From Trichoplax sp. H2 (taxonomy: Eukaryota): 64,000 nt of DNA. The DNA is taken from positions 682,001 through 746,000 of the forward strand of contig NOWV01000018.1 of assembly GCA_003344405.1 (NCBI GenBank), given 5' to 3'. The notes below the pieces were generated by a model that saw only the letters and a list, made by a program, of their open reading frames with translations, made no database searches and had not been told where the DNA came from. The position numbers were made by a program, and so were the translations under genes. Positions 15,001 through 64,000 of this stretch are shown piece after piece. Each line of letters starts with the position of its first letter. The stretch's first letter is position 1.

Positions 15001-18000
15001 AGGGAAAAAATGAAGTTTATCAAAGTGATAATGTCTTGTTAGCCATTCTTGCTAGCACAATATGGTTGTAACACAGTATTGGTACTAGCTAATTTAGTTA
15101 TTGAAGTTAATAAATTGTGGCAAGTTTGTTCAATGTCAATGGTAAATATCTCTATTTCAAAAATGAGCAATTCATTATTGCTTCTATTAGCTTCTAATCT
15201 TATGTGAGATCCACTCGCTACACTGTATAATCATATTAATGTTTAAGAGTACTCTTCTTATTTCTTGTATTTTTGATCGACAGGCCTTTAAGCTGTAGTA
15301 CAATTCGCTTAATGAACCCTCAAATTTTTATCTAAAACGACATTGCAAACCCATAGCCTATACTCTTATATAGCACTGATTTTTCCATTTCTGGTATTTC
15401 TTGATAGTAAAAGCATTTCAACTCGAATCAAATTGACTCTATAGTTACTTTCTCTTCAATTTTTGAATTTTTTTCTTTAAACTTTGATAGACAATACGGT
15501 AGTCAATCTTCATTTTACAGTACTTTATTTACTCTATATAACCTACTGTACACTTTCATACAGCACTGTTCTTCTTCTTTCTAGTATTTATTGATTCTAA
15601 AGTCTTTAAATTCTAGTAAAATTCACTGAATAGCCAATCTCTCTTCAATTCTTGAACTTTTTTACCTTAAGACTTGTGTAAAACTCATTACACAGTAAGT
15701 CTCCATTTGCTAACGCAAGGCCTGTCCTCGATTCCTACAGCACTACTATAAACTTTCAATTTCTCGTATTTCGCATTCTAAAAGTCTTTAAGCTCTAGTA
15801 AAATTTATAAAACGATAAATGTCTCTCTAAATTTCTAGAATTTTCATCCTGAAGCTTCTACAAAAGTCACTACACACAGTAGTCGATCTTTTACTTTATC
15901 TCCTCTATTCCCATAGTACCATTATTGCACTTCTTACATTTTTAATTCTGTCTTGAAACTCAATAGAATTCACTCAATAATTAATCGATCTTTGTCCATT
16001 CCTTGGAATTTTTAACGACTAAACAACCGTAAAAGTCTTTCGGTAGTTTATCTCCACTTTTATCCTCTCTCTTGGTTATAAATTATGTCTGTATTTTTTT
16101 CATTATCGGTATTACTTGCAGTTGTAAATCAGTTGGATTATTCCCACCCCCGACTTGGGAGACTGCCTGTAGTAGTCAGCATGGACAACATTTAATTACA
16201 GTACGTCATAAATTGATGTGTCTAGCCTCCGCTTCTAATATTTTTTAAAAGAGATTGTAATAACTTCATTCAAAATTTAAGTAGAGCAATAACTTGAATA
16301 AATCATGTATTAAAAAAAGAATCTGACTAGTAATCATTTCATCATTAATTTACCAGGTATCGGTAATCAGTTCAATTGCAATCACCATCTTGTTAGAGTT
16401 GTAATTATCGTAACCATGTCTACACTTTTCTACAACTATCAAAAGATTGTAATGTATAATCATGCTCCATTTTTAGAGATCAACAACAGGCATTTTATAG
16501 CGTTGTAACATCAGAGGAGACTATAGTCCTCAATAGTGAAGAATGATTTTAATCATGATAATTAGACTTGTAATTTGTTATGACGCTATTTGCTTTATCA
16601 ATAACGCCTAGTATTATTTTTTGTCTTGCAAAACTAAGTGAATTAGGACTAAACTAGTCTACTTGACGATAACAACTCTGCTTTAACTTCCGTTGTAGTT
16701 CAAGCAAGAATTGGATGACTGAATTTTTTAAAAAATTGCCAACATGAACGTGTTACAAAATGATCAATCATTCTCTTCCATTACTTTTCAATAGGACAGC
16801 CAGTTAAAAATGTCATCCCCAACACAGTGGAATATTAAGAAAATGTTTATGCTATCCATTCCCAATATTATTCTTGAGTGCATCAACTCGGTTGGAATCT
16901 ATCATGATGATTGCATAACGTATAATATATCCTTATGATAATTACATTACATTAATAATATTCAACTGGGCAAAACATATGATCGATGATATTATAGAAT
17001 TAAATAAGCAAATTGAATTCTCTATCCATTCTTTCGAAAATGAAATATCATTAATAAAACAAAATGAAGCAGAATGGTCAAACTTGATTTCATGTTTTTT
17101 AACCGGAAAGATTTCACCCAAAACTCCAATGAAATACTGGATAATATGCATGAAGAATAGAAATATGCATCATTAGGCCATGATCGATTTTCTATCCATG
17201 CAATAAAATACGATGAAATAGACGTGTAGCCGATATAGGAGTAAAAAGTAGAAAAACTGCACTTGGATAGAGTGGCTAACTCTAGCCATAGACTACTCGT
17301 AGGCTAGGATTGCATTCTATCCTTTTCATACACTGTACATTGATTGGCAAAATTTGAAGTTCAAATCTACTAAAGGAGATGTGAATAATTTAGCCATATT
17401 ATGAATTCAATCATTGACAGTTGTCATCGTTATTCGAAATAACTTGATCGTTGAGTATTTACCAAGTTAATGTTTTCACTTTAACTTTTCAATCATGGCT
17501 CGAGCAATAGAAGTAATACAATCTAGGTTCAATCTAATTTATCCACTTTACTGTATTTGGTTAGCTGTGCAAAAGATAGAGTAGCATTACCATACAGTCC
17601 AACTGGATTCTGTTTCGACTCAATATGACAATATTAACTTGTGATAATGTCCCTATCAATTAGCGTTTACAATGTTCAACGGACCGCTACAATCATTGAA
17701 ATCTTTGATAAGCAAGAACTGACATGGAATGAAGATAACAAAATAATCATATAATTCGCCATTTTACAGAGAAAGAAAAATGATATAATCGGTTCAAATT
17801 CATACCTGCTTCTCGTTATCCTTATTCCTCGGTACACATAACACGGGTTCGCAACAGCTGTTTTCCAGTAAGATAATTCCAGAGGCTTTATTGGAATTTT
17901 CACTTTCATAGCTGAATAATATATTTTGATATAAAACATACCAACGAGTTTGCCATTTACTTTTACCTGTTACTTGATCCGTAGTCACCTTTCGATGTAA

Positions 18001-26502: not shown

Positions 26503-26575
26503 TGGAGAATCCGGGTATCGATCCCGGTACCTCTCGCATGCTAAGCGAGCGCTCTACCATGTGAGCTAATTCCCC
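26503..26575 (-). tRNA. tRNA-Ala-AGC: tRNA-Ala (anticodon AGC)
   Basis: Minus strand reads GGGGAATTAGCTCACATGGTAGAGCGCTCGCTTAGCATGCGAGAGGTACCGGGATCGATACCCGGATTCTCCA. It forms a 73 nt cloverleaf with the G3:U70 alanine identity pair, anticodon stem CTCGC/GCGAG around TT-AGC-AT, and A/B boxes. Confidence 0.98.
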
Positions 26576-26649: not shown

Positions 26650-26752
26650 ACCGAGTACAGTACTGGCAGTCAGTTATACAGTACAGTACTGTAGCTGTAC
26701 TGTACTGTACTGTACAGTGTACTGTAATAGTCCATGGTACAGTACCGTATCG
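26650..26752. repeat. TA(CAG/CTG)TA concatemer between tRNA-Ala and IDH (putative transposon-excision footprint cluster)
   Basis: ATACAGTACAGTACTGTAGCTGTACTGTACTGTACTGTACAGTGTACTGTA..GGTACAGTACCGTA. The repeat is seen directly; the footprint origin is inferred. Confidence 0.7.
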
Positions 26753-33416: not shown

Positions 33417-36400
33417 ATGGATGAAAGGAAAATTCTCATCGAGCGGATACGAAAGCAGTTATTAAAGGACGATATTAAGTTATGGCTGCCGCCATATACG
33501 AAACAAGGGGATGAAAGTAGTCATAGCCTGCCTGAGGTAAGGAAGGACTCAGCCAGTTAGATGATTGTATATCTTGCTGCTGCAATAGTAGAAGGAGTTG
33601 ATGATGTCACTGTTTAGAAAAAGTTTTCCTTAGCAAAAGTTGTGCAAAGTTTATAAATGTTGCTGTCCTAAGAATCATCATGATAAGAAAATGAAATGCT
33701 ATATCATCGTTTAGCCACAGGCTTGTAGAGATTTTCTACTGGTCTGTGGTCTTGCATTTCTAACTTGATATGACTTATTTATACAAATACTCTCTTCGTA
33801 TTTCGATCATGTCTTGTGTCAATGGTCAGTACTACGTGAAAATAATCATAGGTATTCTCTTTCTTTCGTCTTTCGGTGATGTACTAATCATCATTGCAAT
33901 CAGAGAAAGAGAATATCATTGCTCTGCATTTCTGACTTGATACTGTTTATTTTAATTCTCTTTCTCTCGTATTTCTATGTTGCAAGACTAAGTATGCTAA
34001 GCATCATTAGAAATGAGACAAAGATAACATCGTCATCCTATATTTTCGATTTGATACCATTTATTTATGCAAATATCCTCTTCTCTCGTAATTCTGTGAT
34101 GTAGGGCAATGGTCCTGATTAGTCCTGATCATAACGATAACAAAGGAGAATAGCATCGTCTTACATTTCTAACTTGATATCATTTATTGATACAAATATT
34201 CTCTTTTCCTTCACCTATTTCCATAATGTAGGAATTAATCGAGAGGTACTCGTCATTCTTACAAATCTCATCCAAAGATGTAAGCGAAGTTTTAGAAAAT
34301 CTACGTTCTCATGCTTTAAAAAAAATACAAGGCAATAAACGATTTCAACAGCATGGTATCGCTACCTTGAATATTCAAGTAGCCAAGACTGGCCGTAATC
34401 AGAAGTTGACTTCTACATCTACGGCAGATAAATATGACTTTCAACTTGATATTCATTTAAGCAATGATGGAAAGGAATTACGAAAAAGGTAAAATTCTTT
34501 GTTGCAGGACAGCAATTGATCAATGAAGTACGCAATTAACTATGAAAATGATTGATGTTATCTGCCTTACTTATAGCCTCATGGATAAACTTGATTGCCG
34601 TGGCGAAAGTATTAAAATGATAAGCAATGGACGATTAATAGAGGATGGTAAGGAATGTAATTAGTATAATACTTCATATAGAATATAGTATGCAGTATAT
34701 TTAAGATCCTGCCATTCATAGCACTAAAGATTTATCGGTTGCCGTAATATGTATATAAGCATTATGATTTAAATACTCTTTCCTAATATGGTAACTACAT
34801 GATAGGGTGCAACTTAACTGATCAAAATATCAAACATAACGGACGAATTCTCGTAGTTAAGACTGCAAAACTAGATAATACGGAGGATAATATCTCGACT
34901 AAAATTTCACAAGCTAGAAAAGTAGCCACTACATTATCCAAGCGGGCCGATGGTACGGACAAATAATTTGTTTTAATTAAATAATGTACAAATAAGCACT
35001 TTCCTGATCTCAATATCCATCTCTTGATCGCAGTGTCTGTTACTGTTTACTTAGTACTTGTTTATTAACACCATATAAGGATAACTAGATAGTTGTCACT
35101 TACGATTGCATTAAAAGTATGTCCTAAGATTAGAGCGTTCTTTTATTCTACTACATTTAAAGCAATGATTTGAAAGACGCAAATTCGGAGTACAGTACTG
35201 TTAATAATGGCGCCATATTCAAGATATGAGCTTCAATTAATAGCGGCTACTCTTTTCGATTTTATAGATGGAAAGTACGAAGGCCATTACATGGAAATTC
35301 GAGATCAAAATGGAGTGCTTATACCTCTTCAATCAACAACCAAGAAAGTATTACTTTTGGCAGATCTCTTGAACAACTACGTGTATGCTATTTATTTCTC
35401 TATTGATGACGGTGTTTTATTCCCTCTCAGTCCTTAGTGATAGCTATGTCTCTACATGAACTGGCTAGAAGCTATATAGATCGTAAGAACTACACTGAAG
35501 CTTTGCCTCTCCTCTTTGAAGCGGACAAGGAGTTTAAGTAAAATTATATGTAAACTATCATAGCTACATTTAGTATTATTATTTACAAAATGCGTCCTGT
35601 TTTTGTTTAATATTCAATTTTAAGGTATAAGACGCTAATCGAAGTTCTCTCGTTGTTTTATAGCCAATGTGATGCAGATATTTTAAATTGTGTAGATAAC
35701 TACGCTAACTTATGCTTAGATATCGTTTGGTGTTATATGAGAATAAAATGCCTCGATTATTTGTCAGACGCAGGTTAGACATGATTTGGATTACTTAGGG
35801 TATTTTACTACATTGACATAATACAGTACATCCATTTATATCCGACAGAATTGAGATTAAGAAAATGTGCACAATGTTTTTCACAATGTTATGGTCAAAA
35901 TATGGAGCGACTAACAGCGATTAAGGTATAAAATTGAATTATCTCAAGTGATGTACTCGTTTTGGCCAGAATTAATTTCCTAAGTAGCTATATTACTTTA
36001 TACATGTTAATAGTACATGTATCTTATCAGAGTGTTTGAAAATTAAATCACCTTTCTAATTGTAATAAATCCCTGATAGTTACGATTGCAACGCATAGCA
36101 GATTATCATTTCTGAAAATGCTTTACTTGCTAAGCTACTATTACAATTTGCAGATAGTATTTATCTAATTGTCTGCTACACAAACAGGGGTGCCATTCCC
36201 ACGAAATAGCATTATTTGCTCGTTTACATCTTTTACAAGGAGTTGTTGCATATCACAAAGGAGACAAATCGACTTGTCAAAGGTTATTAATACAGGTTGG
36301 TTATAACAGTGATCTTTTATATTACTATTTTTATTATGATAAGTACTGTATATAATATCTTACTAGGCCGAAAACGAAATGGAAAAATTAATGGTTAAAG

Positions 36401-40217: not shown

Positions 40218-43200
40218 ATGGCTTTCAATAAACATTTTATAAGAACTTATGGTGCTAAAGGGAAGAGAACGATTAGTGTAACACCTTTCTCTCCAATTTT
40301 AAATGCAAGACAAGCCGTTAGCCGATCACGATCCGATTTCTCTTCCAAATCGTCATCGAGCTACGAGTAAGTAGAATAAGATCGACAATGGCTTGATTTA
40401 CGTATGATATTCAATCGATCGATTGACAATTGCGAGCAACGTGGTAGTCAGTAAACCATTTTTCCTGCTGAGAATTCATCATCATTGAGTGCAAAGTTTG
40501 TATATGAAATACAACCTTCTTGATATGGTATCATAACGCTATAAGAGATATTCTACTTTGGATTACAGTAGCTGTTATACTGCATATTGGAGTACTTTAC
40601 CCATAATTTTGCCATGCTTAATGCAGATGATCGTCGATTTTGCTAGGTGTTTAGTGCTGTGTACCGTATGTGCATTGCTAGGCAAAAACTAGATCTGTCC
40701 TATAAACCGATATTCAGTTATGAGGTGCTCGTTAAAAAGCTAATTTTGGCTCAATTAAACTGTATTATCCAGTTGGTATGGTGATTTTATGGATTCTGAG
40801 GAGATTTACTGTCACTACATATCTATAATGCTTGAAAAAAAGATAAAAGTTAGAAGCTACTTGTATTTACACTAGCGTTATAAAAATGGTAGTAATATTG
40901 CTTTTACTCAATAAGAGTAGCTTGCACCTCCTTTACTGTTTTCTATATCCTACCCTGATATCTTTAGCAGCAACCGTCCGTTAAACTCTTCTATTGATCT
41001 TGGATCGGAGCCAGATCTGAAAAAAAGTGGTGTTTCGGTAAGACAGCTTAAAATTGGAGATTACGATAATTGTTGATTTACCAAGATTGCATCACCTGTA
41101 ACTTACGACCTATTTTGCAATATATTGTAGTCAATTACTGGCAGCTAATTCATATAACGTTAGCATGATATATAACGTCTTACTTACTTGCATAAATATA
41201 ATGTTAGACCTGGATAACTAGGCAATCGTATCATATCTTCCCAACCTTATTACGTTGTTATAATAGCTATAATTGAGGAAATGCGCGGCTTGAAATAACG
41301 AGCTGCTATCACTCCGCATTTCTGCACCTTTTCACTGTATTATTTTGAAATAATTGCAAAGCCTGGAATAGTCTAGCTTAAATTATCTAACTATTATTGC
41401 TCCACATCTCTACAACTCTTCACTTTATTGTATTGAAATAATACTGTAGCTAAACTTGGTAAATAGCCTAGCTTAGAACAATTGATAGTTTTATTCCGCA
41501 TCTCATCACTTTATTATGTTAAAATCATACTGTAGGAAAATTAGGAAATAGCCTAGCTTCAAATAATATAAGTTATCACCCCTTTTTTCACGTCCATTAC
41601 TCATGCTGTATATTGTATTTGCACGCAGGCTGATATTACGTTCGATCATGGAGGCAATTCAACTTGCAATCTTTTCAAGATGTCATCACCTATTGTGCAG
41701 GAAGGAAAGCAAGCAAATTTATCTAGGAGTATCTACGATGAGTCGAATAATGGCGATAGGACACCTTCAGTAACACTTGATCCTGACATACACAATTCCA
41801 GTATCTTCGAAGGCAGTCTCTCAACAAATGACGTTAGCCAAACTTCTATACTGCGTAAACGTTCATTTGCAGTAAGTACTCTATTAATTAAAGAGACGTG
41901 AATGAAGATTCTATGATAATACTCTTCTAGTTGTGCAACTATGTTGGTTAAAATTTTTTACCAGTTACTCATTAACCATACCGGTCTAGTTATTCCACGA
42001 TAAAACCACTTATTAATTAATATTAATGACATCTTCCTATTCTACTTTTTCTAGGAAAGTTTACTACCTTTAACAAATAGAGAATCGAATCTTGATTTGC
42101 CTGATATATATCATAAAGTACTAGAAGAATGCAATCAAACGGAAGCTATAACGCTGGAACAGTATCTTGTTAATAAGTACTGTATTACCACATAGATGCA
42201 ATTAATACTCAATCAGTCAATACCTTGTTTCATGCCCGCATAATGACTGTACTGAAAATCTTAATTATGATACACTTCCAATATGCGTAGTCATTTAAAA
42301 TTTGATAAACACAATAACTAAAGGAATCAATAAATTATTCTAGAGCATTTGTAAAACTTGGTGAAGGCACCTTTGCCGAAGTATTTCGATGTAGTAATAC
42401 AGAAGGAAAGGAATCCATCATAAAGGTATTTAAGAGTATTAGCAATGTACGTACCATCATATAAATAGATAAAGATCAAAATCAGTGTTATGCGTATTAA
42501 CTTAAGAATTACTAGCACAATGGCTAAAGTATTATTTTATTTTTCAAGTAATTTCATCTCTTGTATTAGATATGTGCGCTATTTAGCTTATTCACAAAGT
42601 AGATGCCCATTATTAATGGATAGCCATTTTATCTTTATCTGTATAGGTTTTATTTAATTTATTACATACTAATCCTCATTTTAGATTATGCCTGTAGAGG
42701 GAAAGGAGTTAATTAACGAAGAAGAACAAAAAAAATTTGAAGATATCTTGGCGGAAATAGTCATCGCGCGGTAAATTCTACTGCCATATGCTAATGTTTT
42801 GTTGATTATTGGTAATCTAGTAACGACTATATATTTTCTCAATCTATCTATTTGGCAGGGAATTAAGCTCATTAAGGCACAAGGTTAGATGCCAGGCAGC
42901 CATGAGTTACTATTTGACTTTTCATCTAAACTGAGATTTGTATAATTCTTGCATAGGATATTACAGGCAGGAATCAAACGAATAATTTCATTGAGTTGCT
43001 TAGGTAACAACTACTTTAAATCAGAGATGATCTTACTTATTTATTACAGTCTTACCAATACTGTTGTATAATTACATAGTTTACGAGTATAATATCGCCA
43101 ACTCTTTTATTTAAAGTGTTGCCTGTTGCCGCGGTCGCTACCCTCAGAAGTTACTTTTGGCATGGAAAGAATGGGATAAAAAATATAAATCAGAAAATGA

Positions 43201-49600: not shown

Positions 49601-52600
49601 ATGTTTGTAGTAATATAGGCACCAAATAACCTAAAGCACCCTTGACGTAATGTTTACTTGTTTGCTCTGGAGGTCTTCCAGCTTCTGCAGCCTTTTATTC
49701 ACAATCGTTAGTGAAATCGATTAGTGAAGATATTCTAACATAATTTTTTTTTAACCGCTCTGCTGTGGACTTACATCGGCAGCCTCAATAGCTAAATCAA
49801 CCTCTTCGTCACAAATGCTTGACCAAAATTCAATACCTTGTAAAGCAACCGCATCTTGATGAGAAGTCATAGCATCTATCGTAATCTAAATGATAGAATA
49901 AAGTATTTCGAAATGAGTAGATGACAAGGACGATTAATATTTAGAAGCAAGTAATATAATAACAATCATTTACCGCAAATAACGCTGGTCCCATGTAATG
50001 TTCCATATACTGGTAATATAATGTGACAATCCTGACTAGGTTTTGAAGGGCAGCAACACGGATCTATGATTGTATAATAATCATATTTCATTTTCTACTC
50101 ATTTCCTGGGAATTAGAATCAAGGCAATGAATAAATGACCAGAGTTTCTCATACCTGCTCATCAGGGCTTTGCGTTGCTTCGCATAGAACTTGCATGATA
50201 TAATGTCTCTCACTCTGTATGTGTTAACATAATTGCAAGTTACTCCTTTTCTCAATGCAAATCATACTAATGGTAAAATCCTTCATTGAATATTTACTGT
50301 TTTCTCAAAGTTTGCTTTGGTGAATTCTAAAGAATTTAATAAGGCTTTTGCAGCGGCGAGTCGGACATAATTACTAAAATAATTTAAAATAATAATCGCT
50401 ATGAATGTCTATTATATATATAATAAACCGATTACAAACAGATTCAATTTTTTAGCATTTCATTTTATGGAAGATTCTAGTATCTCGATATCTAACCTGG
50501 GCTCTTCCTTTCGCATTCCTAATATTATCGCCGTTAAAATGTCATTAGATTTTGACGATATAACATCAGGGTCCTACCATTGAAAGTAGTAGAAAATCAT
50601 ACAGGTAAGTTCATTATTAGTCTTTAAAAGTTATAGCAAAATATTAATTTTAGGTTACAAGCGCTATATTAGAAAACAAAAACAAAATTTTGTGCAATTA
50701 TATTTTGCAATAATGAAGATCTTCACCACATCCTTACTTACAGCGATATCGCTACAAATGTAGCCTATAGCCTCTAATGAAGATTCCTTCAACGCTTCTG
50801 TACTATGTTGATTAGTGACGTTTCGAACTAATGTGGGTATAACCTCAGGCCAAACATTAAATGGCAATTCGACGCAAGCAATGCTAGCAACACACTAGAA
50901 TTTTAAGATGAGTTCAAAGATAGTTACTAGTTAAACAATTAGTTAATATCATTGTAATGATTCATTTACGGCTTCTATTGCATCATTTCAACAATATCGT
51001 TAGATACGAGGAAAAATCTATAATAACTACAATAGAAGGTCACTATTTAGTTTAACGTATATCAGACTGTGAGAGCTGCCTAAACCTATTCTACAATCAT
51101 AATTATATTTTTTGCCCGTTTGCCTATAGAAGAAATACAGCTAACCTGAGCGGCAGATGAAGGTCGTGAAGGTTCAGTTCCCAAGGTTTGTAAAACCTGA
51201 ATTAAAATGAAGATGTTAAAATTAGCTACGGCTACAGCCAAAAAATTGCACTCTACTTCTGCAGTATTAATGATACAATTCTCCTATCCATAAAGCATCT
51301 TGCGGTATCGCTAAATCTTACAGTAATTCTAAATTATGCGATTTAAATACTAGTAAAATCTCACCAAGTTTTTAATATGGTAGCGAACATCATTACTAAA
51401 TGTTTTCCATCTTTCTTGATACTGTAACTTGATAGCGGGGTCTTTAGATGTAAAAGAATTTTTTAAATTGATTCCAGCAGCCATTCGAACGACCTGAGAT
51501 TTATCGGTATTGGCCAATATATTGACCAAGGCCACCAAGAATTCCGGCTGTGTACATGGTAATGAAAGATAAATTTTAAGATTAGTTACGTTATTAATCT
51601 TGTTTACGAATATAATGTAGTACCAAAATCTCCTCCGAATAATTAATTTGATAGAAATTATATGACATTTAATGGTAAAATTACAACTTGTATGCAGTAA
51701 GATAAAAACGAAACTGTTATGATACCACTAGCTAATCTATACTTTAAATCTATAAGTCACTGATACATAAAAATTAATATGTAAAACCCTCTGATCTGTC
51801 ATAGTATTCAAAGGGCAAGTATGATAAATGGTTATGCTGCACTTACCAGATTTCTTTCTGCGGCTTGTTCCACATATTTTTGTGCAGCAATTAATTCATT
51901 ATTGTCTGTTGCAAATTAGAATGAAAGAAATTTGCTACCTTAATATCATGTACTATACTTTGCAAGAAATAGTGCATTATAAACTATCTTTGGTAAGAAT
52001 TAGCATATATCATCCTATAAATTTAAAGATGCATGAATTCCATTAATGTAGTGTTTGCTCGTAATCCCCTAGTACTACTAGATTATGAATACAACTATGC
52101 ATTTCTAGTAGAATTCTCGCATTATGTATAGTACAATAAAATAAATATAAGAAATGATCATTTTAATGGCCACTTTCATCTCGGCTAATTTTAAATATAC
52201 AAATATGTTAAGGTGTCCGTACTAGATTGCAACATTAGTTGTATTATTATAACTATCAACCATAAATCGGTCTACACCACATAAAATAACTGAGTTTCTA
52301 CAGTGTACGATAGACCATTAAACTTATACATTCATTGCTCCTAGGCTGCTTAACCGTACTTTATGTTTGATCCAATCGTAATGCAGACCGTCGAAGTGTT
52401 TGTAATATAATCATAGAGTCAAGTATGCTAGCTAGCCTGCATTGAATCTTACTTACAATTCGTATCTGTATGCTTATTGGTGCATAACAGATTAACATGG
52501 TGGATGTGCACAGTCAACCAACACTCATGTATAAATTTACATCTACTTTGGTTCCATTTCTGTATTGTAAACTCGATCTTATCACTTGGCAAAGCTAGTC

Positions 52601-54845
52601 ATTAATTGAAGTGCTGGACTACAAGCTGAATGCAGCATACAACATTGGCAATCGAAAGTAAAGTCGTCGAATTACAAAAGCTTTGATGTCAATCTGAATC
52701 GCAAGATGTCTTAGGAACATTATACGAGTCCATAATAATTTTTAGTCACGACGTGTCATAAAACCTTTGGCTAAAAATCATCATCAGCTTTTAGCAAGGC
52801 TGTTAACAACCTACAGGTCAATTGGAATTCACTCTACGAGTACGTAGAGTAAAAGTAAACGAAGTGGGGAGATGTTCGAAGGATTCAAACACATCCCTAG
52901 CATATACTGTACAGGGATCAAGTTGAATCGACGTACTCAGTATCGATTGTACTGTCCATAAAAATGTTGCCAAAATATACGTGCAGTACTACGACCTCGG
53001 CCAAGAAGATGGGTGCAGCAGCACTATTCTGGTATACTGTAGTATCTTCGTCCATTGGGCTTCATGTGGCTCCAATTCGAATAAAAAGCCTACAGCCTGA
53101 CTGTGCAATTATGAAACTAGCATCTACTGTACTATACATTGTAAAATGTAGTGCACAGTACTTTACAATACTGTAGTAAACTCGACTGGCCGTACAGTAC
53201 AATCTGTGTACAGTCAATTTTTCTTCATTTTGCCGTATTGTATAGTGAACAATACAACATGCAGTACTGAATCCGTACTGTAAAGTTTCAAAGACCGTAA
53301 AAGTAGGCCTCCCGCCAAAGCAAAAAAAAAGGTGAAGAGCAACGTGCTATCAGACTTTTACTTTCAATAAATGTACCAAAAAAATTCGACCGATGGCATA
53401 ATAGAACTAGGAGATATTAATTACTAATTGAAGATCAGTAATTTAGCATCACGAGCAGTAAATTTTACATCAATCTATCTGTTATCACATGAAATCATAG
53501 CAAAAAGTAATAACGGCAGTCAGACTAGACGATACAGCGTAAGGATGAGACATGACAGTAGCCTAATCATTACAGTACAGTCCCTAGTACACAGTTTGCT
53601 GGCACTCACTGGTCGCTGCCAAGCGATGTTGCTAAATGAATTAGTATTCTAGATTATCGGTGAATGCAGACATTTTAGTTTATGATATATTCCACCACTA
53701 TCATTCAGCAGTCAATAGTTCACAGCAAGATTTAAGAAATCATTTCTTTATCAAATACTGCTGCCTAACTACATTGCTGTCGTGGTAGATGAAAGTAGCT
53801 CGCTCAATGCATTACTACATACTGTACAACGTCTAGCAAATGCATTGTATTGTATTGTATGTATACGTCCAGCACTACTACTCATATCTACCTACATTAA
53901 ATCTTTTATCGTTGAATTTTCATAACCCGTGGAATAGTGCTACTATCCATGTATTGTACATTAAAATGATCTACAGTTAAAAATTACACTCTATCAAATC
54001 AAGTTATTCTAAGCAGGAACATGGGCAAATAGAATAAGCATAGGAATAAGGGTACCATCTCAAACAAATAGCAATTCAGAAACTGCTAATTTACTGCTGC
54101 TGGTAACGAGCGATCTTCGCCCATTCATGCATTAATTCTTGGTGAAGTAAAAGTGCAAAAAAGCAATATTCATGCACGTCAGGCTACGACATTAGGCTAT
54201 CATAGGGATTGCTTTAAAAATAATAGGAAACTGCGCAACGAACACAACGTGTCCATTGGTCTGTAGATTATTGTGCGAGTATAGCATCAAGAACCAAACA
54301 GTGTGCAGGTTTGAGGCTAATCCATTGGTACGAAATTCAAAATGCAGTTGAAATCTGGCTGTAGACACTACCGTCCTGGGCATGATTGCGATTGGAGTGG
54401 AATAATGCGTATAATATTGAAATTGCAAGTTTTTATGAATGCCTTCCATGGTCGCTGAGAACGGTATCTTACAGTATCGTTCCATCAGAGTTGGTGGATA
54501 GTAGAAGCTGACACAATAAAAAAACCAACTATTGGCAGTGACGAATTGACTACAGTAAAGTAGGCATGAGCACTTTCAGAGAATAACATGTTTGAAAATT
54601 CTACTGTATTCTAGTGCACTTGGCTGACACATGGTCCATGAAATTAAAATAAAACAGATACATTGACATTATGTAGTAAAATAGGAGAAGATATTTCTTG
54701 ACAAGATCGAACAAGGCTAAATGCAAGGATGATTCAAGTGCAACAGCAACACTGACTGAACAGTGTATCAATACAAGATGACATTGGTTGAATTTTTTTT
54801 TTTACCGTTGGAGACCGTAGCTTGTAGAACTTTTTCCAAATCCAT
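46690..54845 (-). CDS. KPNB1: Importin subunit beta-1 (karyopherin beta-1)
   Basis: About 25 GT-AG exons. Exon 1 is 54845-54806 ([13 protein letters not shown]), followed by a 2.9 kb intron, then 51905-51847, 51547-51365, 51196-51146, 50894-50742, and on to the last exon 46840-46690. Motifs: [87 protein letters not shown]. Confidence 0.96.
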
Positions 54846-55299
54846 TATGTGTTAATTTATTGTTACTGGCTCTAACTTGTACAGAGATTGAATGCCTAAT
54901 GAATCAGTAAAAGCGTATGCAGAAAAAGGAATTCCAAAACTAAATTGCTTTAATTCTGTACAGGAAATGGTTGACGTCTGCAGACTTTATACATGGTACG
55001 TACTACGTCCAGCCAGTACGAACAACAAACGCTGCACTGAGCTTAGTACAGTAGTTGTGAAAGGATGGATGGTAAGTTGAAAGACTATAAGTCCTTTTCC
55101 ACTCTAGTCTTTCATCAGTGTGGCCGATACCGTACTGAGTACTGAGTAGTACGTCAGTGGCAGGTCCATGGTTCAGTCATAACGCAATCGATAAACCCTA
55201 CTGGGAGCTGTACTACATTGTACTGTTTGAGTTCGTCTACTTTCCAACTCTGTACCATGTCGTCCGTGGCATGGACTTGCATCAGTCAACTTGACTCAA

Positions 55300-56535
55300 C
55301 TCTGCCTTCCCCCCGTTTGCTGTCACTGGCTTCAACTTGCTAATGCAGTCGCCTGGTGTACACTGTACACTGCCATGTCATGAACTGCGATACTCGACCG
55401 TGAAGTTCACACATACAGTACAGTGTACTGTACAGTACATGAGAAGAGAGGAATTCACCGAACAACGATACAGTACTGTACAGTGTACTGTACTATACTG
55501 TACTGTACGTCATTCTATCTGTCTTTCACTGCACAGTACAGTGAAAACCAACTCGCTACAGTACATACTTTCAGGGGGTGACAATTGGGTTTGTAAAGGC
55601 TGTACAGTACGTATTTCACTCACCCACAGTATTTTGCTGTCACTGGCTTCAACTTGCTAATGCAGTCGCCTACTGTACACAGTACAGTACACTGCCATGT
55701 CATGAACTGCCATACTGTACTCGACCGTGAAGTTCACACATACAGTACAGTATCTGTAGCGTACAGTACAGTGTACAGTACATGAGAAGAGAGGAATTCA
55801 CCGAACAACGATACTGTACTGTGTACTGTACTGTACAGTGTACAGTACTGTACGGTATTTCACTCACCCACAGTACAGTACAGTACATTATACAGTATAA
55901 TAATAATAATAATTAATTATTATTATTAACAATACAGTACACTAATGCCGTACAGTACGTTGCTGTGCACTGTGTGCCTATACAGTATTACAGTATTATT
56001 ATTATTAATCAAGTTTAATGTTAATAAATTTAATTTTACTTTTACAAAAGGTTAATATTATTTTTATTTGAGCTTGCTCTGCCCCCCCCCCCTTTTGCTG
56101 TCACTGGCTTCAACTTGCTAATGCAGTCGCCTGGTGTACAGTACTGTACACTGCCATGTCATGAACTGCCATACTCGACCGTGAAGTTCACACATACTGT
56201 ACACTGTACAGTGTCTGTAGTGTACAGTACAGTGTACAGTACTGTACATGAGAAGAGAGGAATTCACCGAACAACGATACAGTACTGTACAGTACTGTAT
56301 TTCACTCACCCACAGTACTGTACTGTACTGTATAATAATAGTAATTAATTATTATTATTAACAATACACAAATGCCGTACAGTACTGTACGGTACTGTGT
56401 AGTGTGTACTGTACAGTCTGTGTGTCTACACTGTACACTGTACTGTACAGTATTACAGTTTTATTATCAAGTTTACTGTTAATAAATTTAATTTTACTTT
56501 TACAAAAGGTTAATAATATTATTTGAGCTTGTTCA
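55300..56535. repeat. Three-copy high-identity tandem repeat (~320-460 bp units) interrupted by TA(CAG/CTG)TA insertions
   Basis: Copies start near 55316, 55632 and 56093 with TTTGCTGTCACTGGCTTCAACTTGCTAATGCAGTCGCC. They share CTCGACCGTGAAGTTCACACA and CATGAGAAGAGAGGAATTCACCGAACAACGA. Confidence 0.95.
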
Positions 56536-56957
56536 ATATTCAAAGTAACACAGTTGAACAGTGAATACTACACAAGTAGCCCGAAACTGAAGCCCTCAAA
56601 GCTATTCAATGCAGTCTAGAAATAGCCACACGAGTATACTGTACTGTATATAGCAATCACATCTCTGATTTCTCATCATTCCAAATGTGGCTGTATCGTC
56701 CTCGACTGTACTGTACTAAAATTTTGCAAGCCCGCTTTTTTCCCTGGCTTCGGTCTTTCCACATTCACCTGAATGAATAGTTGATACTGTACTGTACTAG
56801 TGCACATCTGAGGATCGTATTGTAGTCACAATTCCTCACAATAAGTAGAAGACAGCAGGGGACACAACGCATCCTTATTAAAAGGGTTATGGTCAGGGTT
56901 ACTCTCTCCGACGGATCAACACTTTGAACGACACGCACGTCTTAACCTCATCTCACC

Positions 56958-57106
56958 TACACTACAGTGTACAGTACAGTACAGTACAATATTGCAGAAC
57001 ACTATTCTGGCTGTACAGTACAGTACTGTACTGTACTGTACAGTGTACAGTATGTACAGTACTGTACACCCGTTGTCTAAAACTGTACCTTGTACAGTAC
57101 AGTACA
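56958..57106. repeat. TA(CAG/CTG/CAGTG/TG)TA concatemer
   Basis: For example CTGTACAGTACAGTACTGTACTGTACTGTACAGTGTACAGTATGTACAGTACTGTACA. Confidence 0.8.
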
Positions 57107-58673
57107 ATTCTGAACAATTGTATTACGTCAGTATTTCATGCGGGGTGGTCGACTAAAGAGCGTGCTGTTCAGGGGCGATGCTCCCCTACTGTAGCAAGAT
57201 CACACTTTTTCTCAACCCTGCTATGACTGCATAGTATATTACTGCCAGGGCGTCCACCATGACCCGACCCACTGGCTGACTTTGGCCCACAGTAGAGTTC
57301 ATATAGGCAAAGGAGACGATTAAGTACCCTAGCACTAACAACTGCCCTACCCAAAGTTGTCAGCAAAATACGAAAGTACATCATTAGTTATACGATAATT
57401 TGGAAGAATCGTCCTTAGCTTATTGCGCCAATTGGGTTTAACGATCTTCTACAGGTAAGTTGAAATTGCCACATGATTGATCTGGACTCATTCTGTATGT
57501 TTTATTGAGTCGTTAATGATGCTATTGAAATGGAACGAATGGACATGGTGCGTTTAGTTTGAAGTTATTTTTTTCCTTTTTCTTCATACTTGGATGATAT
57601 AGTCGTGGATGAGCGGCGCATACCGCTCACTACTGACAGTAGTATAGACTGACGTAGCTAGAGACACCCTATTGTATTGCTACACATAGTAGGAATGGAC
57701 ATGAGGAAATAAAGCCATGGCAGATACTATGGCTGTAATTCTTGTCTGAATCATTGGATAATCAATGATCGCTGATATGGACATGGCGACATCTTTTACG
57801 TCCATCTTCATCTTCAATTCAACTATCTAGTTGAACAGGAGTCATGGTATGGAGAAGTCATTTCCATCCTGTTGGAGCAATGACCATTGCCCTGATAAAC
57901 GTGTTGTCACACCGCACGGGTAGCTTCCCAACTTTTTCACTCTACGGTCAAGAGCATATTTGTATCTATCGCAGCCAGTAGTAGATCGTCTAGGGAGGCA
58001 AACAGAAAGTAATTTATCTTCATGACTAGACTACGCAGAATAGTATAGACACTTTTTGAACTAACTGTTCGTTCATTCTCCTTTCCACCAAGACAAGGAT
58101 CGATCAAGTATGGTACTTGATCGATCGATTGGTCATTGCATGATCAAATTGTCATTCAGTGCAATCACTACAGTACACTAGCAGGGACGAGCGTCTGATC
58201 CAATGGAGCCGGTTCCTTCAACCAATTCGTGGACAATTTTATTGTCATTGAAAGATTCTTGTTAATGCTAGGATACTACCCAATTAATTTCACTGCCAAT
58301 GTATTAGTTCTAGTACTAGTTTGCTTTCATCTTGCAATATCCAACAGTTTACTCATTTTCTTCATGAAAATCGACGACGCGTTGTAGTATTGACGTACAG
58401 CCTAGTAGACTACTGTACAGGCCATATACGACGCAAGCGGCAGATGTAAAGTCAATTTTACAATCAACGAACAGATTGCTATTTGTCAATCAATTCTATC
58501 ATTAATGTCATAAAAATCATCGACGTAAGCTGTACTATTTTATTTCGGGGAATTTTCAATTCTTTCATTATCAATTACTATACGATATCGCTGTTATTGT
58601 CGCTTTGAATTGAAAATGTTCTCTAATTTTGGCACTTGTTTTGCTTATAGGAATTCATCACCAATAACATTCG

Positions 58674-61600
58674 ATGGCTTCTAGAGGGCAACCTCAACGT
58701 CCTAATGGTAGTGGACAATCTAAAATATGCCAATTCAAGTTGGTTTTATTAGGTAATTCATTTTTCTACGCGAAAGCGTTATTGTACCAAGAGGAGTTTT
58801 TTAAACGTGATATATAAATCCTAAAATCTACTATAAACACACAGTATGTCAATAGCCGACGACAATCGTGTCTTTCGCAATATCGGAAGACGATACTCGA
58901 TAAGTGAAATCTTCTTATCATCATACGAGTTGGAAGATTGCCTTCCTTTATGCGTAGCTTGATGCTTCCGCATTTGGATAGTACTCCCCCATTAAACTTC
59001 ACGCTGATCGACAGAATGATGAACCATTTTTCCCCATCATACTCATAACGTCCACTGCATATTGCAATCGTACCTTCATATTCATACGAATAATAACCAG
59101 CATAAATTTCGAAAGCATGCAACTGTCTGAATCGTATTAATTCTATGCTTTCGTTATTTAATCATAATCAAATTTGAATATATTCTAGTCTAAGTGATGA
59201 ATGAATATTTTACCACTACTATACTTTATTATCAGACGTATGCAGTTCGAGCTTGGAATACGTCTTCAACCTTAGTTCTATCGTGCTGATCATAACTGTT
59301 ATTTTAGTATGTTGTTTTATGTAAGTTCACATGCGATATAGAGACTCTAGACTTTAGAGTGAAAGTTACGTTCCCATAGTGTTTAACGCTAGTATTTTTT
59401 ATGACGTCACACTTAAAATTAAAACTGAAGACAACATTGACTAGAGTATTGCATACTACAGCATACTACAGAATTGTATGAAAACAGTAAACATCCTGTC
59501 TCATCGATCTCAAACAAGCAAGGGGAATGGATCATGATGGCTGCACAAGATCAATCCTTTTTTAAATTTAATCGTTACTTACATTTACTGTACACCCATT
59601 TGGATGGTAAATTAAAAGATGTAATTGCTAGAAAAAGAATTTTTCGCACTTTTTCTGTCGGTGTACACATTACTATTTACCTTGATAAATAGCAAAAAGA
59701 AACTATTTCAGCATTGATTTTCCTCTTTTGCTTACTTGATAATTTGTAAAATTTTAAATTTTATAAATTTATCCTATGTGAATTATAATATGTATAAATA
59801 TTACGAATTCTATCGGCCGAAATATTAGGTGCCTCAGTAGCATGGGTGATTTAAAAATTCGAATTATAAAGGTTCTGAATTTTATGAGTTTATCAAAGAT
59901 AAATTATATTATCTTAAGCACGTATATTGCTCACTCGCATAAGCTGGCCGGTAGTAAAATGTCATAAGGTACATGTTCTACTACTGTACAGTAGAATCAA
60001 TTAAAAGTGACACTGAGAGTGGTTACATTTGTCTGATCATATTATTCCAATTCGTATATTCTGCGATCTCAGCAATATAATTTCAATTTATTCTGCTAAA
60101 ATTGTATAGGTGTGTCTACATGGCTTATAATGGCTATAATTTTTAAATAAACAGATAAATATTATATCTAGTGAAAGCTGCGTACAGTAATCGATTGGTC
60201 CTTAACGCATTGCATTCTTAGCAAAGACGAAAACATAAACTACTTGCAATTTTTATGCAGTGCGTGATCGTATTACGTAATATAAACCCGCTTAGAAGAT
60301 ATCTGTAGTTGAACTTAGAACGTTCTTATACAATACTTTAACTATATTTGGGGTTGCCCTCAAAACCTGTATTACTCATGGTCGGAATTACGTTCAATCG
60401 ATTTAAATCACTCGCGGTAGACTTTTTATACGTATACAGGATATAAATTACACTATCGACAAGATTCTCTCGATAATGATTAAAATTAAAAATAACGTAT
60501 AATAATCATTAACGGTTTATCCAAGTTTGATCCTGTAGCGTAATTTTATATACATGTATACAAAGGAATGAATTAATTTATGCGAGTTATGGTCGTTAAA
60601 TTTACGCTATTACAAAATATGCGAATTCGAATACTTCAAATTGCCATATAAGAAATATAAGCGGCGAAATTAACATAATATTGTGTATTTGATAGGTGAA
60701 TCTGCTGTTGGCAAATCAAGCTTAGTCTTGCGATTTGTTAAAGGTCAATTCCAGGAATATCAAGAAAGTACTATAGGAGGTAAGAAAAGCTCTTCCATTT
60801 GGAGAAATTACACTATCCATGACACAAAGATGAAACTGATTTAATTACTCAATTTAATCGAAAACATTACGTACTAAAATAATTCTACACTACTGAAAAT
60901 ATGTTAGACTAATGGTTGAAGTGTATAAACAATTTTAATCATAACATTAATGATATGATTATTACTTCTATATAGCTGCCTTCCTTACGCAGACGGTTTG
61001 TTTAGACGATGTTACTGTCAAATTTGAAATTTGGGATACAGCTGGACAAGAAAATATCTTTTTGATACTTCCATGTTGCGATTCTGTTCTCTTAATTTAT
61101 ATCTACAATTATGAATAGATCAACTTTATAATTCAATTCCTTGACTGCATTTTGTCGATATTTACGATATCATAGCTTGGCCCCTATGTACTATCGTGGA
61201 GCTCAGACTGCAATTGTTGTATATGATATATCCAACGCGGTAATATATATAAAGCAATAGCGACACCATCGAATTTGAATACTAATAATTATTCCTATCC
61301 CAATCCATTGTAGGAATCATTTCAACGTGCAAAAGCATGGGTTAAGGAATTACAACGTCAAGCTAGCCCTAACATCGTAATCGCATTAGCTGGTAACAAG
61401 GCAGATTTGGCTAATAAAAGGATGGTTGATGCTGATGTAAGAGTTAAAATCAATAATCATAAATATTATGATTCAGTTTTCACGCTAAATATTATATCTA
61501 CTGTATGATTAACCATAGGAGGCACAGGTTTACGCTGAAGAAAATGGGCTATTGTTTATGGAAACCTCCGCTAAAACTGCTATGAATGTAAACGAAATAT

Positions 61601-61797
61601 TTTTAGCTATCGGTAAGGACTACGTACTGAAAACCTCAACTAAGTGATCAAGTAATAATTTACAATCTTCTTTTTAAGCCAAAAAATTACCAAAATCTGA
61701 GCAAGGTGGTGGTGGCGCTGCTACTCAAGGTGGTGCGCGTGTTGTAGATATTAACAAACCTGCAAATAATTCTGGAGGAGGTGGTTGTTGTAAATAA
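58674..61797 (+). CDS. RAB5: Rab5 small GTPase
   Basis: Exons: 58674-58752, 60696-60779, 60976-61053, 61166-61239, 61314-61436, 61519-61612, 61679-61797. Motifs: [92 protein letters not shown], and C-terminal GCCK prenylation signal. Confidence 0.98.
61054..61165 (+). other. U12-type (minor spliceosome) AT-AC intron in Rab5
   Basis: The 5' end is ATATCTTTTT, the branch site TTCCTTGAC is at 61137-61145, and the 3' end is TTTAC. Removal restores GAA A|GA TAT CAT = E-R-Y-H. Confidence 0.95.
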
Positions 61798-63134
61798 GTT
61801 ATCAATGACGAAAGTACAAGGCTATCTATAGGGAGAGTAGATTGACGATAAATTTATTTCATATGGACAGTTTGCCTTATGCTGTATAATTTTCTTTCTT
61901 CGAGTCTCGGTTTCATGTAGCGAATGGATAGCTATATACCTATTCCTGCGGATATTATAGGAAATCTACGGTGTTAGTGATAAAATAGGCAACCTAAAAT
62001 TCGTATGCGTGCTTCACTTGATTGTATGGTTCTTCAATAACTAATTATATTAGATACTATAATAATACTGGAAGTGATGTTATAAACGGATTTTGCTATC
62101 TTACTACTAATTAAAGTAAACAGTCACACATACTATAAAAATTGTAACAGGTAAGATCATACTTGTGCTATAGTTGTAAGTCCTACTGTTCAATATCAAA
62201 TACCTATTGTAGTCATTACTAAAATTAAAATTTATAGTAGCGCTACCTTGACCTATTCTACGCATTTCATTACAATTAATATACTGTATGACTATCTTAA
62301 TAGCTGTCTAATATGAAAGTGTATTACCCAATGTTGTTATTGGGCTTCTTAATTGTATATCGAAATTAAAGTTACATTTTTTTAATTGTCATTCAAATGT
62401 AAGTGTTGCCAAGAATCTTTCTACTGCCGTAAAAATTCAGTATATTGTAGCTGTCTCAATGTAATGATTGGTAATCTGATTAAGATACTGAGGAAATAAA
62501 ATTGAATACCAAAAATTGGTACGTCACCCGTACTACTTATAAAAATAGTATACTTAACGTTAGGACAACAATATCAGATTCATAAATGGTGTTAGTATTT
62601 TATTTAATACTCGTTTGACCTTCATTGATCTAGCTCCTGATGTACAGTAAATTAGATTCAGCTCGGAAAGAGTTGATAGTAACAATTTTAAATATGCCCG
62701 TAAATTAATATTGTACAGCGTAATTTTACTCTACTGTATATCATGAAATAATATCCAATCGAAAAGTCTGGCCAGCGAGTCTTTAAGATTTGCTGACTTG
62801 TTAGATGTTATAATGATACGATAATAGATCCACAATAAAGCATTAACTGCATAGATGCATAGAGTTGCTATATCGATAGTAGCAAACAGCCCGCATCAAA
62901 CTACCGTATCATTGCCCATTATACAGTACAGAAGAAAGAAGGCATATGTAACTATACAATACATGCGCCCATGTATTCGCTAAATTGACATTACAATACT
63001 CAAATGTCGTTAAACATATCGTATTTACAGGAGTAGTTCATGGCATTTAGTGATCCGCGTAATTACATAATTTCTTCATGTTGAATCGTATGCATAAAAA
63101 TTATATACTTATTATCTCATAAAAATTGTTACTG

Positions 63135-64000
63135 CTATTTACCATCAACACCAAATATTATCTGAAACATTTCACCTAAATCATGATCTTGTAAATATTG
63201 AGAAAATTGTCCCAAATCCATATGATAATTACGACCTCCATGAACACTAAAAGCTACTTCTTCAAAAGATGTAAACTTTCGCTGTAAAGTATAGCTATCT
63301 TCACGATGCCTTGAAGTGATTCTTTTCCAATTCAGCCGTCGCAACCTAGCGAAATAATCCGATACAGCTTTTTCGTCGCCTTCAACACACAAAACGCCTG
63401 GCTTTCCGGGGAGACAAAACCCTATGTAAATTGAATACGATTAACTTCAGCTAGTGGCTGTGATTTCAAAGACTGGATCTTATGAGAATTACTATATAAA
63501 ATACAACTATAATCCAAATTCATATTATTTGTCCTCCAAAATGACAGCGCCTACAGTATGTTTTATCTAACAGTGCAAGCGTTGTATATGAGCTCGATCA
63601 ATTTAGACTAGTAAGAAATCGAATAAGCAAAGGATCTACAATGACTGCTACAGACTTGCAGTATCATGGTAGTATCGTTACACTTCAATACTCAGATCAT
63701 AAAGACAACTGAAACGCAGTTAATGCGCGTACTAATACAATTTTATATGAATTAGTAAATAAATTATTTTTATTTACCAGTAAGATTTAGCTCCTCTGCC
63801 CATTCAACTATGACTTTACGCTTGGTTTTGCTGTAAATATGATGCATATACAATAATAATCGGCTTAATTTGTTATCGCTTTCCGCTGAGATGGGTTCTT
63901 TTGGCAATGTTTTACTTGTACAGGCTGCACTATGGCTGATATAATTTGATAAATTTTCCTGTATCCACTGCAAAGTAGGTACAATGCATAATTCGCCAAG
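63135..64000 (-). CDS. RWDD2: RWD domain-containing protein 2-like (RWDD2A/B), 5' part beyond window end
   Basis: Exons >64000-63778 and 63421-63135. Motifs: LLLYMHHIYSKTKRKVIVEWAEELNLTG|FCLPGKPGVLCVEG, RLRRLNWKRI, FEEVAF, HMDLGQF, FQIIFGVDGK. Confidence 0.9.

Follow-up and report, generated by a model that had tools for sequence, protein, structure and literature searches.

How does a five-base unit come to be written many times, in both orientations, into the DNA between two genes? The question is raised by positions 55300–57110 of a 64-kb stretch of Trichoplax sp. H2 DNA (assembly GCA_003344405.1, contig NOWV01000018.1, positions 682,001–746,000 of the forward strand; the whole stretch of 64,000 nucleotides is called the window), where CAG and CTG units are stacked between TA dinucleotides upstream of an importin-beta-like and a Rab5-like gene. 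An earlier note on this DNA had read the arrays as accumulated excision footprints of Tc1/mariner transposons. We observed that the units are anchored at TA, that their orientation carries no memory of the neighbouring unit, that lone heptamers are in excess, that units turn over fast, and that the arrays lie between two gene starts. We give an even chance to the reading that footprints seed and mainly grow the arrays, with slippage and deletions added on top.

Unit inventory and the published ACAGT repeat

The heptamer TACWGTA occurs 65 times in 55290–57130 (1841 bp), or 35 per kb, against 0.8 per kb in two gene-rich stretches (1–26300 and 26900–51870). Splitting the region at TA gives an even CAG 34 and CTG 31, followed by CAGTG 7, CACTG 4, CTGTG 2, CGG 2 and CACAG 1. 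Counted as in Wang 2010 (PMC2871265), 11 of the window's 13 perfect ACAGT-class repeats longer than 12 bp lie in 55300–57110.

The earlier note had spoken of cryptic satellites, which these are not. The arrays belong to (ACAGT)n, already published as the dominant microsatellite of Trichoplax: it makes up 78% of the pentanucleotide microsatellites of Trichoplax adhaerens (5624 repeats), and 54% of its repeats lie no more than 1 kb, and 85% no more than 5 kb, upstream of a gene (Wang 2010, PMC2871265; statements on this and other cited papers refer to the parts of each that were available). The arrays here agree with it in the pentamer, in perfect runs longer than 12 bp and in their position upstream of housekeeping genes, ATGs at 54845 (minus) and 58674 flanking the cluster within the 1–5 kb considered in that study. 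Neither the repeat nor its promoter bias is new, since both were published there. The available text treats the repeat as a microsatellite and possible factor-binding site and is silent on its origin, as it is on TA anchoring, mixed orientation, lone heptamers and the 7-base unit. No proposal of a footprint origin for the ACAGT repeat was found in the literature covered, which mostly did not extend to subscription papers and Repbase Reports.

Three repeat copies with a common core

Between the importin-beta and Rab5-like genes there are three partial copies of a 320–460 bp unit, with cores starting at 55316, 55633 and 56094. Because copy 1 is partial, the arrangement is not a simple triple tandem. 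The features of the region are as follows.

55316–55631, plus strand: copy 1 (partial), core with array sites A–D and an extra segment; 13 collapsible units
55508–55602: segment present in copy 1 only, about 95–100 bp, with unit arrays on both sides
55633–56076, plus strand: copy 2, core and AT-rich right arm; 24 collapsible units
55671–55689: site A of copy 2, with CTG, CACAG and CAG; hairpin with 8-base arms
55713–55719: site B of copy 2, a single TA-CTG-TA
55741–55780: site C of copy 2 (55414–55437 in copy 1, 56195–56246 in copy 3)
55812–55857: site D of copy 2, 8 units of mixed orientation
55901–55928: perfect 28-bp AAT/ATT triplet palindrome, its TA sites free of CAG/CTG units
55933–55939: site F of copy 2, a single TA-CAG-TA; bare TA in copy 3 (56365)
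56077–56531, plus strand: copy 3, core from 56094; 24 collapsible units; 8 of 34 TA sites occupied
56637–57104: single-copy arrays outside the duplication (56637–56648, 56785–56796, 56963–56986, 57014–57052, 57055–57066 and 57093–57104), onto which thousands of contigs from elsewhere in the genome map

The earlier note had asked whether the copies would converge on one sequence once the units were removed. TA-anchored CAG/CTG-type units were stripped and the remaining cores aligned, and the three cores converged with at most one mismatch per pair. Copies 2 and 3 match at 149 of 150 aligned bases, with one mismatch and two 5-base gaps; copy 1 has a single mismatch with each of the others and retains, after collapse, an 11–16 base block and a 96–101 base stretch of its own. 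Convergence is weaker in the right arms of copies 2 and 3; identity over the whole unit rises from 78% to 87%. Both copy comparisons quoted in the note are present in the sequence exactly as written. Its statement that the copies differ mainly by TA-anchored units is correct for most of the differences and fails for a 5-base difference at site A and for the copy-1-only segment. Copies 2 and 3 have probably lost this segment through a deletion between arrays, unless it was gained. As a candidate relic element it was rejected, having no terminal inverted repeat (TIR) above chance; it is single in the window and contains a short head-to-head inverted repeat near 55527–55547.

Site by site, the cleanest footprint-like gain is at B, where the single unit of copy 2 corresponds to a bare TA in copies 1 (55391) and 3 (56172). 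A 5-base gain relative to a bare TA was found at both B and F; its direction is taken at B from copies 1 and 3 (two of the three) and is not polarised at F. Site A takes a different form in each copy (55354–55367 in copy 1 and 56132–56148 in copy 3). At site C, copies 1 and 3 each have a CTG unit missing from copy 2, at different TAs, and site D of copy 3 has 4 units (56278–56299). Altogether, copies 2 and 3 are separated by at least 15 unit-level edits at four core sites, or 20 with the fifth, against 1 substitution in 150 bases, and therefore the units turn over far faster than the spacer bases.

Contigs of four sequencing runs were mapped to 52500–64000, where 4642–5192 landed per run, mostly on arrays. 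On the copy-3 arm, gap letters and substitutions were 16/0 and 26/1 in two of the pieces, which again points to fast unit turnover, and 1/1 and 19/11 in two others, and the 12 indels listed out of 579 each lie inside arrays. The available text of Eitel 2018 (PMC6067683) gives no indel spectrum. The AAT/ATT palindrome has a counterpart in copy 3 (56333–56360) and shows one orientation switch, unlike the adjoining scrambled CAG/CTG arrays.

Orientation of adjacent units

The earlier note regarded the irregular alternation of CAG and CTG as beyond simple slippage, under which new units would copy the orientation of their neighbours. Of 31 pairs of adjacent units, 14 show a flip in orientation (p 0.72 against one half); without copies 1 and 2 the count is 11 of 24. 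Partial units at array ends agree with the last unit in 19 of 44 cases. The control consisted of ACAGT satellites of other organisms, obtained from motif scans of viral, metagenome and prokaryote collections. Of the 125 loci fetched, we used 34 with at least 30 heptamers each, all chosen for holding at least one flip; L058 was dropped as a duplicate, and L026, the other end of the L027 contig and also below the cut-off, was excluded. Flips were counted in 164 of 1517 pairs of the control satellites, which differs from this locus at Fisher p 2e-6. They share the pentamer with the Trichoplax arrays and differ in being long and mostly of single orientation (11% flips), with many point-mutated units, a minority being mixed. 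By GC content and unit spectrum, none of the 125 loci was recognised as placozoan, and a 31-base unique spacer had no match in metagenome contigs.

Array growth was also simulated on 16 de-duplicated arrays (14 flips in 34 pairs, with 7-base units counted). Orientation-random additions of 40% or less were rejected (P at most 0.02), and those of 50–100% were accepted. The orientation of a new unit is thus without memory, and the alternation exceeds simple slippage, as had been claimed. Because the units are TA-anchored and their orientation memoryless, slippage alone is refuted. CAG-to-CTG and CTG-to-CAG junctions stand at 10 to 4, numbers too small for use.

Lone heptamers and seven-base units

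Outside the clusters (57.8 kb), TACWGTA occurs 51 times against 17.3 expected from an order-2 Markov model (p 4e-11), at the top of the 32 TA-N3-TA classes. Nearly all are single units at ordinary flanks, the outward bases being T33, G24, C21 and A20. This excess counts for footprints, because slippage cannot produce a lone unit; together with the memoryless flips it means that the object is TA plus CWG plus TA, beyond a tandem pentamer. One-mismatch neighbours of the heptamer are raised too (346 vs 271), which fits an ageing population. The flanks of lone heptamers are palindromic in 4 of 75 cases versus 5.2 expected, the chance level, and a test of palindromic target flanks at heptamers gave no significance. 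In the same 57.8 kb, the observed/expected ratio is 0.97 for TpA, hardly a depletion, and 0.88 for CpG, a mild one.

Measured against the heptamer, CAGTG/CACTG, a unit of 7 bases, is about 23-fold more frequent in this DNA than in the control satellites (17 beside 143 heptamers vs 14 beside 2753, or 12% vs 0.5%). Outside the clusters it is the top of 512 TA-N5-TA classes, with 5 versus 0.72 expected (p 9e-4, uncorrected). The earlier note had taken these units as repair variants; they are absent from the eight footprints given in the available text of a Sleeping Beauty paper (10.1101/659086). A one-base overlap of CAG overhangs, a route outside that paper, could produce them. As a discriminator, the expectation that slippage favours CTGTG/CACAG over CAGTG/CACTG failed, the controls going the opposite way, 14 to 2.

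A second transposon family behind CCG/CGG units, also suggested in the note, was not borne out. Only 2 such units lie in the region, with 11 versus 5.8 expected outside the clusters (p 0.035, uncorrected), and they arise via point change in ordinary satellites (228 beside 2753 heptamers). After ACAGT, the top pentamers with at least two G/C in Trichoplax adhaerens are ACCGT (95) and ACTCT (61) (Wang 2010, PMC2871265), both of which have the TA-NNN form.

Within cluster DNA, G-TA-C sites are occupied in 9 of 38 cases and other sites in 10 of 209. The bias may reflect a preference for such targets, by which stacking would feed itself; other readings are microhomology used when templates switch, and units that have decayed at the edges of arrays.

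Non-coding DNA of the window contains many old, local tandem duplications (90–400 bp, 70–85% identity) at the following positions.

7245–7902
10712–11458
11713–12206
12594–12834
14225–14528
15140–15900
33749–34205
41312–41570

They were examined for unit gains in 16 pairwise and three multiple alignments. One gain, at 15544, is plausible; the unit at 41442 is present in 2 of 3 copies, 11320 resembles a 9-base loss, 11876 is a point change, and 7532, 3998 and 4042 are ambiguous.

The heptamer in other organisms

Three of the fetched contigs, L013, L055 and L074, share a record prefix and together (49.7 kb, with the selected match masked) hold 36 heptamers versus 5.3 expected (p 2e-18), the top class. 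L013 is red-alga-like, the nearest named relatives of one of its proteins being Chondrus (52%) and Gracilariopsis (53%). L074 contains at 3096–3223 a 128-bp element resembling a miniature inverted-repeat transposable element (MITE), with perfect 22-base inverted ends that start with CAGTG and TA on both sides; its target flanks are also symmetric, and it occurs once among all fetched loci. This is the kind of element that a footprint model needs, but in another organism. Among loci longer than 8 kb, lone heptamers are in excess at p <0.001 in 7 of 21 (two of the 7, L057 and L058, being one satellite locus) and not in the other 14.

Short mixed arrays and a strong excess of lone TACWGTA mark the gene-dense eukaryotic contigs L013 (16 lone heptamers vs 1.5 expected), L015 (7 vs 0.4), L053, L055 and L071. 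No transposase domain was found in the 40 scanned of 394 long open reading frames (ORFs) from the fetched loci; the one integrase-core match among them is in a Polinton-like contig. L026 and L027 are the two ends of one contig with Polinton-like genes (integrase core, A32-type ATPase), and ACAGT arrays lie at both ends. In the satellites L092 and L048, a single block of CTG units faces a single block of CAG units, and in L092 the inverted match reaches into the flanking sequence, a clear fold-back duplication.

Excision footprints as a proposed source of units

TACAGTA and TACTGTA had been named in the earlier note as known products of Tc1/mariner excision, which agrees with the canonical footprint of Sleeping Beauty, a member of the Tc1 family. 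That footprint forms from 3-base overhangs with one central mismatch, and six non-canonical footprints account for over half of the events in the assay (10.1101/659086). The units analysed here consist of TA, CAG or CTG, and TA, in both orientations irrespective of their neighbours, and by analogy may work like Tc1/mariner footprints. The likeness covers the heptamers, both orientations and the 5-base gain at TA. The Sleeping Beauty footprints differ in being single scars at the donor site of an identified element, whereas here they are stacked by the dozen, without non-canonical enrichment and with a recurring 7-base unit outside that list.

In the mechanism that we propose, a TA-targeting cut-and-paste element with CAG...CTG ends (of Tc1/mariner/pogo type), or a MITE mobilised by one, would insert in open promoter DNA and later excise. 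Two 3-base CAG overhangs would then be joined over a central A:A mismatch, resolved either way. The unit itself behaves like a gain of 5 bases by which a TA is doubled, TA-CAG-TA and TA-CTG-TA arising from TA equally often. Because each scar would add a TA, sites would be revisited and scars stacked. Slippage and deletions between units would supply up to about half of the length changes, and the arrays may also have been retained for a regulatory role. The transposon as agent, its targeting of open chromatin and the self-feeding are what we infer from the observed pattern. In favour of this reading we count, besides the identity with the two canonical footprints, the even and memoryless orientation, the partial units at array ends, the lone heptamers with their flanks of chance-level symmetry, the bare and filled TAs at B and F together with the older case at 15544, the frequency of the 7-base unit, and the heptamer excess in L013, L055 and L074 along with the L074 element.

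Several points weigh against this reading, many of them concerning the element itself. No TA-CAG...CTG-TA element with inverted ends was found in the 64-kb window; the best pair of ends, among 739, has 17 of 25 matches, which is the chance level (maxima of 15–18 in shuffled sequence). None of the 14 window ORFs of at least 100 aa encodes a transposase, as the earlier note had already stated. Its expectation of a Tc1/mariner family with CAG ends in the lineage was not upheld by the window or by the available text of published Trichoplax surveys. Wang 2010 (PMC2871265) describes 11 mariner/Tc1 relics in Trichoplax adhaerens, of which three have putative full ORFs but are single-copy and lack TIRs; it also reports a single MITE family, with about 20 copies. 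Kamm 2018 (PMC6057997) reports TcMar as short fragments only and no Pfam-positive ORF of Tc1/mariner/pogo type, and concludes that transposons are not currently shaping these genomes. The available supplements of Tc1/pogo surveys (PMC7386202, PMC7325037) are without a placozoan entry. A low element count would not necessarily be a contradiction, because a cut-and-paste element can jump and leave scars without raising its copy number. The MITE-like element of L074 is a single copy 7 kb from the array, and L013, L055 and L074 were selected by motif and may be different organisms.

Further points on the same side concern the units. The six non-canonical Sleeping Beauty footprints are not enriched outside the clusters: TACATA/TATGTA (TACATA 50 vs 84 expected), TACTA/TAGTA (TACTA 264 vs 273), TACGTA and TATA are at or below expectation, the reference spectrum being one from human cell lines that may not transfer. 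The 7-base unit lies outside the footprint list, and the controls share the preference for CAGTG/CACTG over CTGTG/CACAG. Several of the older repeat pairs are ambiguous or negative for unit gain. AT-rich TA runs are spared, only 2 of 20 sites without G/C flanks being occupied in copy 3. The G-TA-C bias fits microhomology-driven copying equally well, the turnover between copies 2 and 3 is extreme, and the locus holds a palindrome that is not made of CAG units (AAT/ATT, 28 bp) as well as hairpin-shaped arrays.

Template switching and other explanations

These last points also support the main rival. A template switch, or templated break repair, would copy a nearby unit from either strand through TAC/GTA microhomology, and slippage would expand the result; we regard this as possible, at rather less than an even chance. 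The two orientations of TAC-W-GTA, a quasi-palindrome, differ in a single base. Template switching would randomise orientation too, and open promoter DNA breaks or stalls more often. Besides the G-TA-C context of occupied sites, both clean gains (B and F) argue for it, because in each the unit gained opens with the same two bases that stand next to the TA on its downstream side, and other units lie within about 30 bp. The palindrome and the hairpin-shaped arrays suggest that inverted copying may be acting at the locus. Elsewhere, mixed ACAGT loci have flip rates of 0.38–0.75 (L020, L025, L051, L066, L093, L103 and L107), and L048 and L092 contain the block fold-backs. Template switching accounts for the very fast turnover and makes an element unnecessary, in agreement with the available text of the published transposon surveys. 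However, lone heptamers far from arrays, at background-like flanks and three times as frequent as expected, are hard to produce in this way, and most long ACAGT satellites elsewhere are about 90% uniform although templates abound. Quasi-palindrome template switches and templated end-joining insertions yield inverted copies of nearby sequence and need short homology. They are usually of variable length and extend into the flanks, whereas the units here are sharply 5 or 7 bases long, lone units stand at ordinary flanks, and palindromes reaching into unique flanks are at chance (5 of 17 multi-unit arrays vs 2.8, p 0.09; no singles).

A less likely explanation, which we consider doubtful, is that the heptamer is the binding site of a placozoan promoter or loop-anchor protein, varied by mutation and slippage and retained by selection, which would keep either orientation because the site is nearly symmetric. 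The 54% of ACAGT repeats within 1 kb upstream of genes (Wang 2010, PMC2871265), the position of one cluster between two gene starts and of the other next to a tRNA gene, and the motif at housekeeping loop-anchor promoters of several placozoans (Kim 2025, PMC12221973; likened by setting only) are consistent with it. Against this, the copies differ by whole units at many sites while their spacers are nearly identical, so neither how many units there are nor how they are ordered is conserved. One-step gains of 5 bases at bare TAs are not something that selection supplies, and red-alga-like DNA is enriched in the heptamer too. A bound site under selection may explain why the arrays were retained, not how they were generated.

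That ordinary slippage built a microsatellite here, with point mutation changing the middle base, is very improbable. The 11 perfect ACAGT repeats longer than 12 bp and the largely uniform three-unit pure arrays (7 of 8 pairs) are what it predicts; the flip counts, the rejection of slippage-dominated growth in the simulation and the lone heptamers are against it, as is the middle base, with 65 A/T units versus 2 C/G in the region and 203 minority-orientation versus 228 in the controls. Slippage is refuted as the sole mechanism and is still a contributor.

Least probable of all, and bearing on the meaning of the copies and not of the arrays, is that copies 2 and 3 are two alleles placed in tandem by the assembler: no listed contig crosses the copy junctions and summed depth at 56372 is 1.5, 1.2 and 0.5 times the flanking depth in three of four runs, but it is about twice the flanking depth in run X3, the window has no N gap, there are three copies with a nested junction, and the contigs of 3 of 4 runs are interrupted at both edges of the shared sequence, at 55345 (30 bases past its start) and at its right end, like a true repeat. 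The copies are likely a true duplication.

Loop anchors and the meaning of the arrays

Kim 2025 (PMC12221973) describes a motif at loop-anchor promoters of housekeeping genes that is common to placozoans, and places it in Mutator TIRs called with EDTA, i.e. links it to a DNA transposon. The letters of the motif are in figures and occur in neither the available text nor four supplements; the genomic setting is the same as here, and as the comparison is by setting alone, identity of sequence is a guess. Kamm 2018 (PMC6057997) lists MULE-MuDR as 93 fragments only (4955 bp) in a homology-based annotation. At the present locus, orientation-scrambled arrays yield false inverted-repeat pairs, 144 in 4 kb with arms up to 52 nt, and the inverted matches seen are array-to-array only. 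Mutator elements have long TIRs and a 9-bp target duplication. We suspect that the Mutator calls may be these arrays.

Should the units be footprints, thousands of recent excision scars would lie at the housekeeping promoters of a genome considered free of active transposons; repeats would have a non-slippage route to birth, the arrays would be a countable record of transposon visits, and the Mutator assignment would call for a re-check. A wider claim is that the placozoan promoter repeat consists of self-feeding excision scars of a low-copy, active or recent TA-targeting transposon or domesticated transposase, and that the same applies in red algae; we put it forward tentatively and think it more doubtful than probable. 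If it were true, one process would write the heptamer into intergenic DNA of unrelated eukaryotes such as red algae, the promoter repeat would possibly be the motif of chromatin-loop anchors, and promoter sequence would be built by transposons that leave hardly any copies behind. Even without footprints, the arrays demand an orientation-randomising insertion process that is missing from microsatellite models. New in this analysis are the three-way paralogue comparison, the slippage control from outside, the heptamer signature in red-alga-like DNA and the CAG-ended MITE in L074.

Gene setting and other features

The DNA of the window is animal-like and intron-rich, with a GC content of 31–33%. 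An RWD-domain exon at its end has animal homologues at 60–64% identity, the cnidarian ones being nearest (60%). The features next to the arrays, and the second cluster, are as follows.

54806–54845, minus strand: probable first coding exon of an importin-beta (KPNB1-like) gene, with ATG at 54845 and 40 nt, then GT
57455–58676, plus strand: probable 5' region of a Rab5-like gene, with a splice-donor consensus at 57455 and ATG at 58674
26677–26749: second, smaller array cluster, 100 bp from a tRNA-Ala gene (26503–26575)

A downstream exon frame at 51350–51727 matches Pfam IBN_N (E 5e-10), and we tentatively assign the exons to one importin-beta gene, the first repeat copy being 455 bp away from its ATG. 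Downstream exons of the Rab5-like gene match Pfam Ras (E 9e-9 and 7e-7). In naming the genes KPNB1 and Rab5 we follow our reading of the translated exons, Pfam supporting the families only. The region is thus upstream of both the importin-beta gene (minus) and the Rab5 gene (plus), which bears out the earlier placing of the arrays in promoter DNA of housekeeping genes. The label is fair because the region sits between two gene starts, as placed by their ATGs.

An untranslated first exon of the Rab5-like gene possibly ends at 57455, judging from the donor consensus only. In every repeat copy, a minus-strand splice-donor consensus adjoins site E (55619, 55863 and 56305), and the duplicated unit may include an untranslated first exon of importin-beta, which would give three alternative starts. 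The ORFs overlying the arrays had no Pfam match at the cut-off, and in an Rfam scan the tRNA was the sole match. The second cluster, near tRNA-Ala, has 12 heptamers in 600 bp. The exons downstream of it resemble, by eye, those of isocitrate dehydrogenase. A 131-aa open frame (58766–59161, minus), with no Pfam match, lies on the opposite strand in the first coding intron of the Rab5-like gene.

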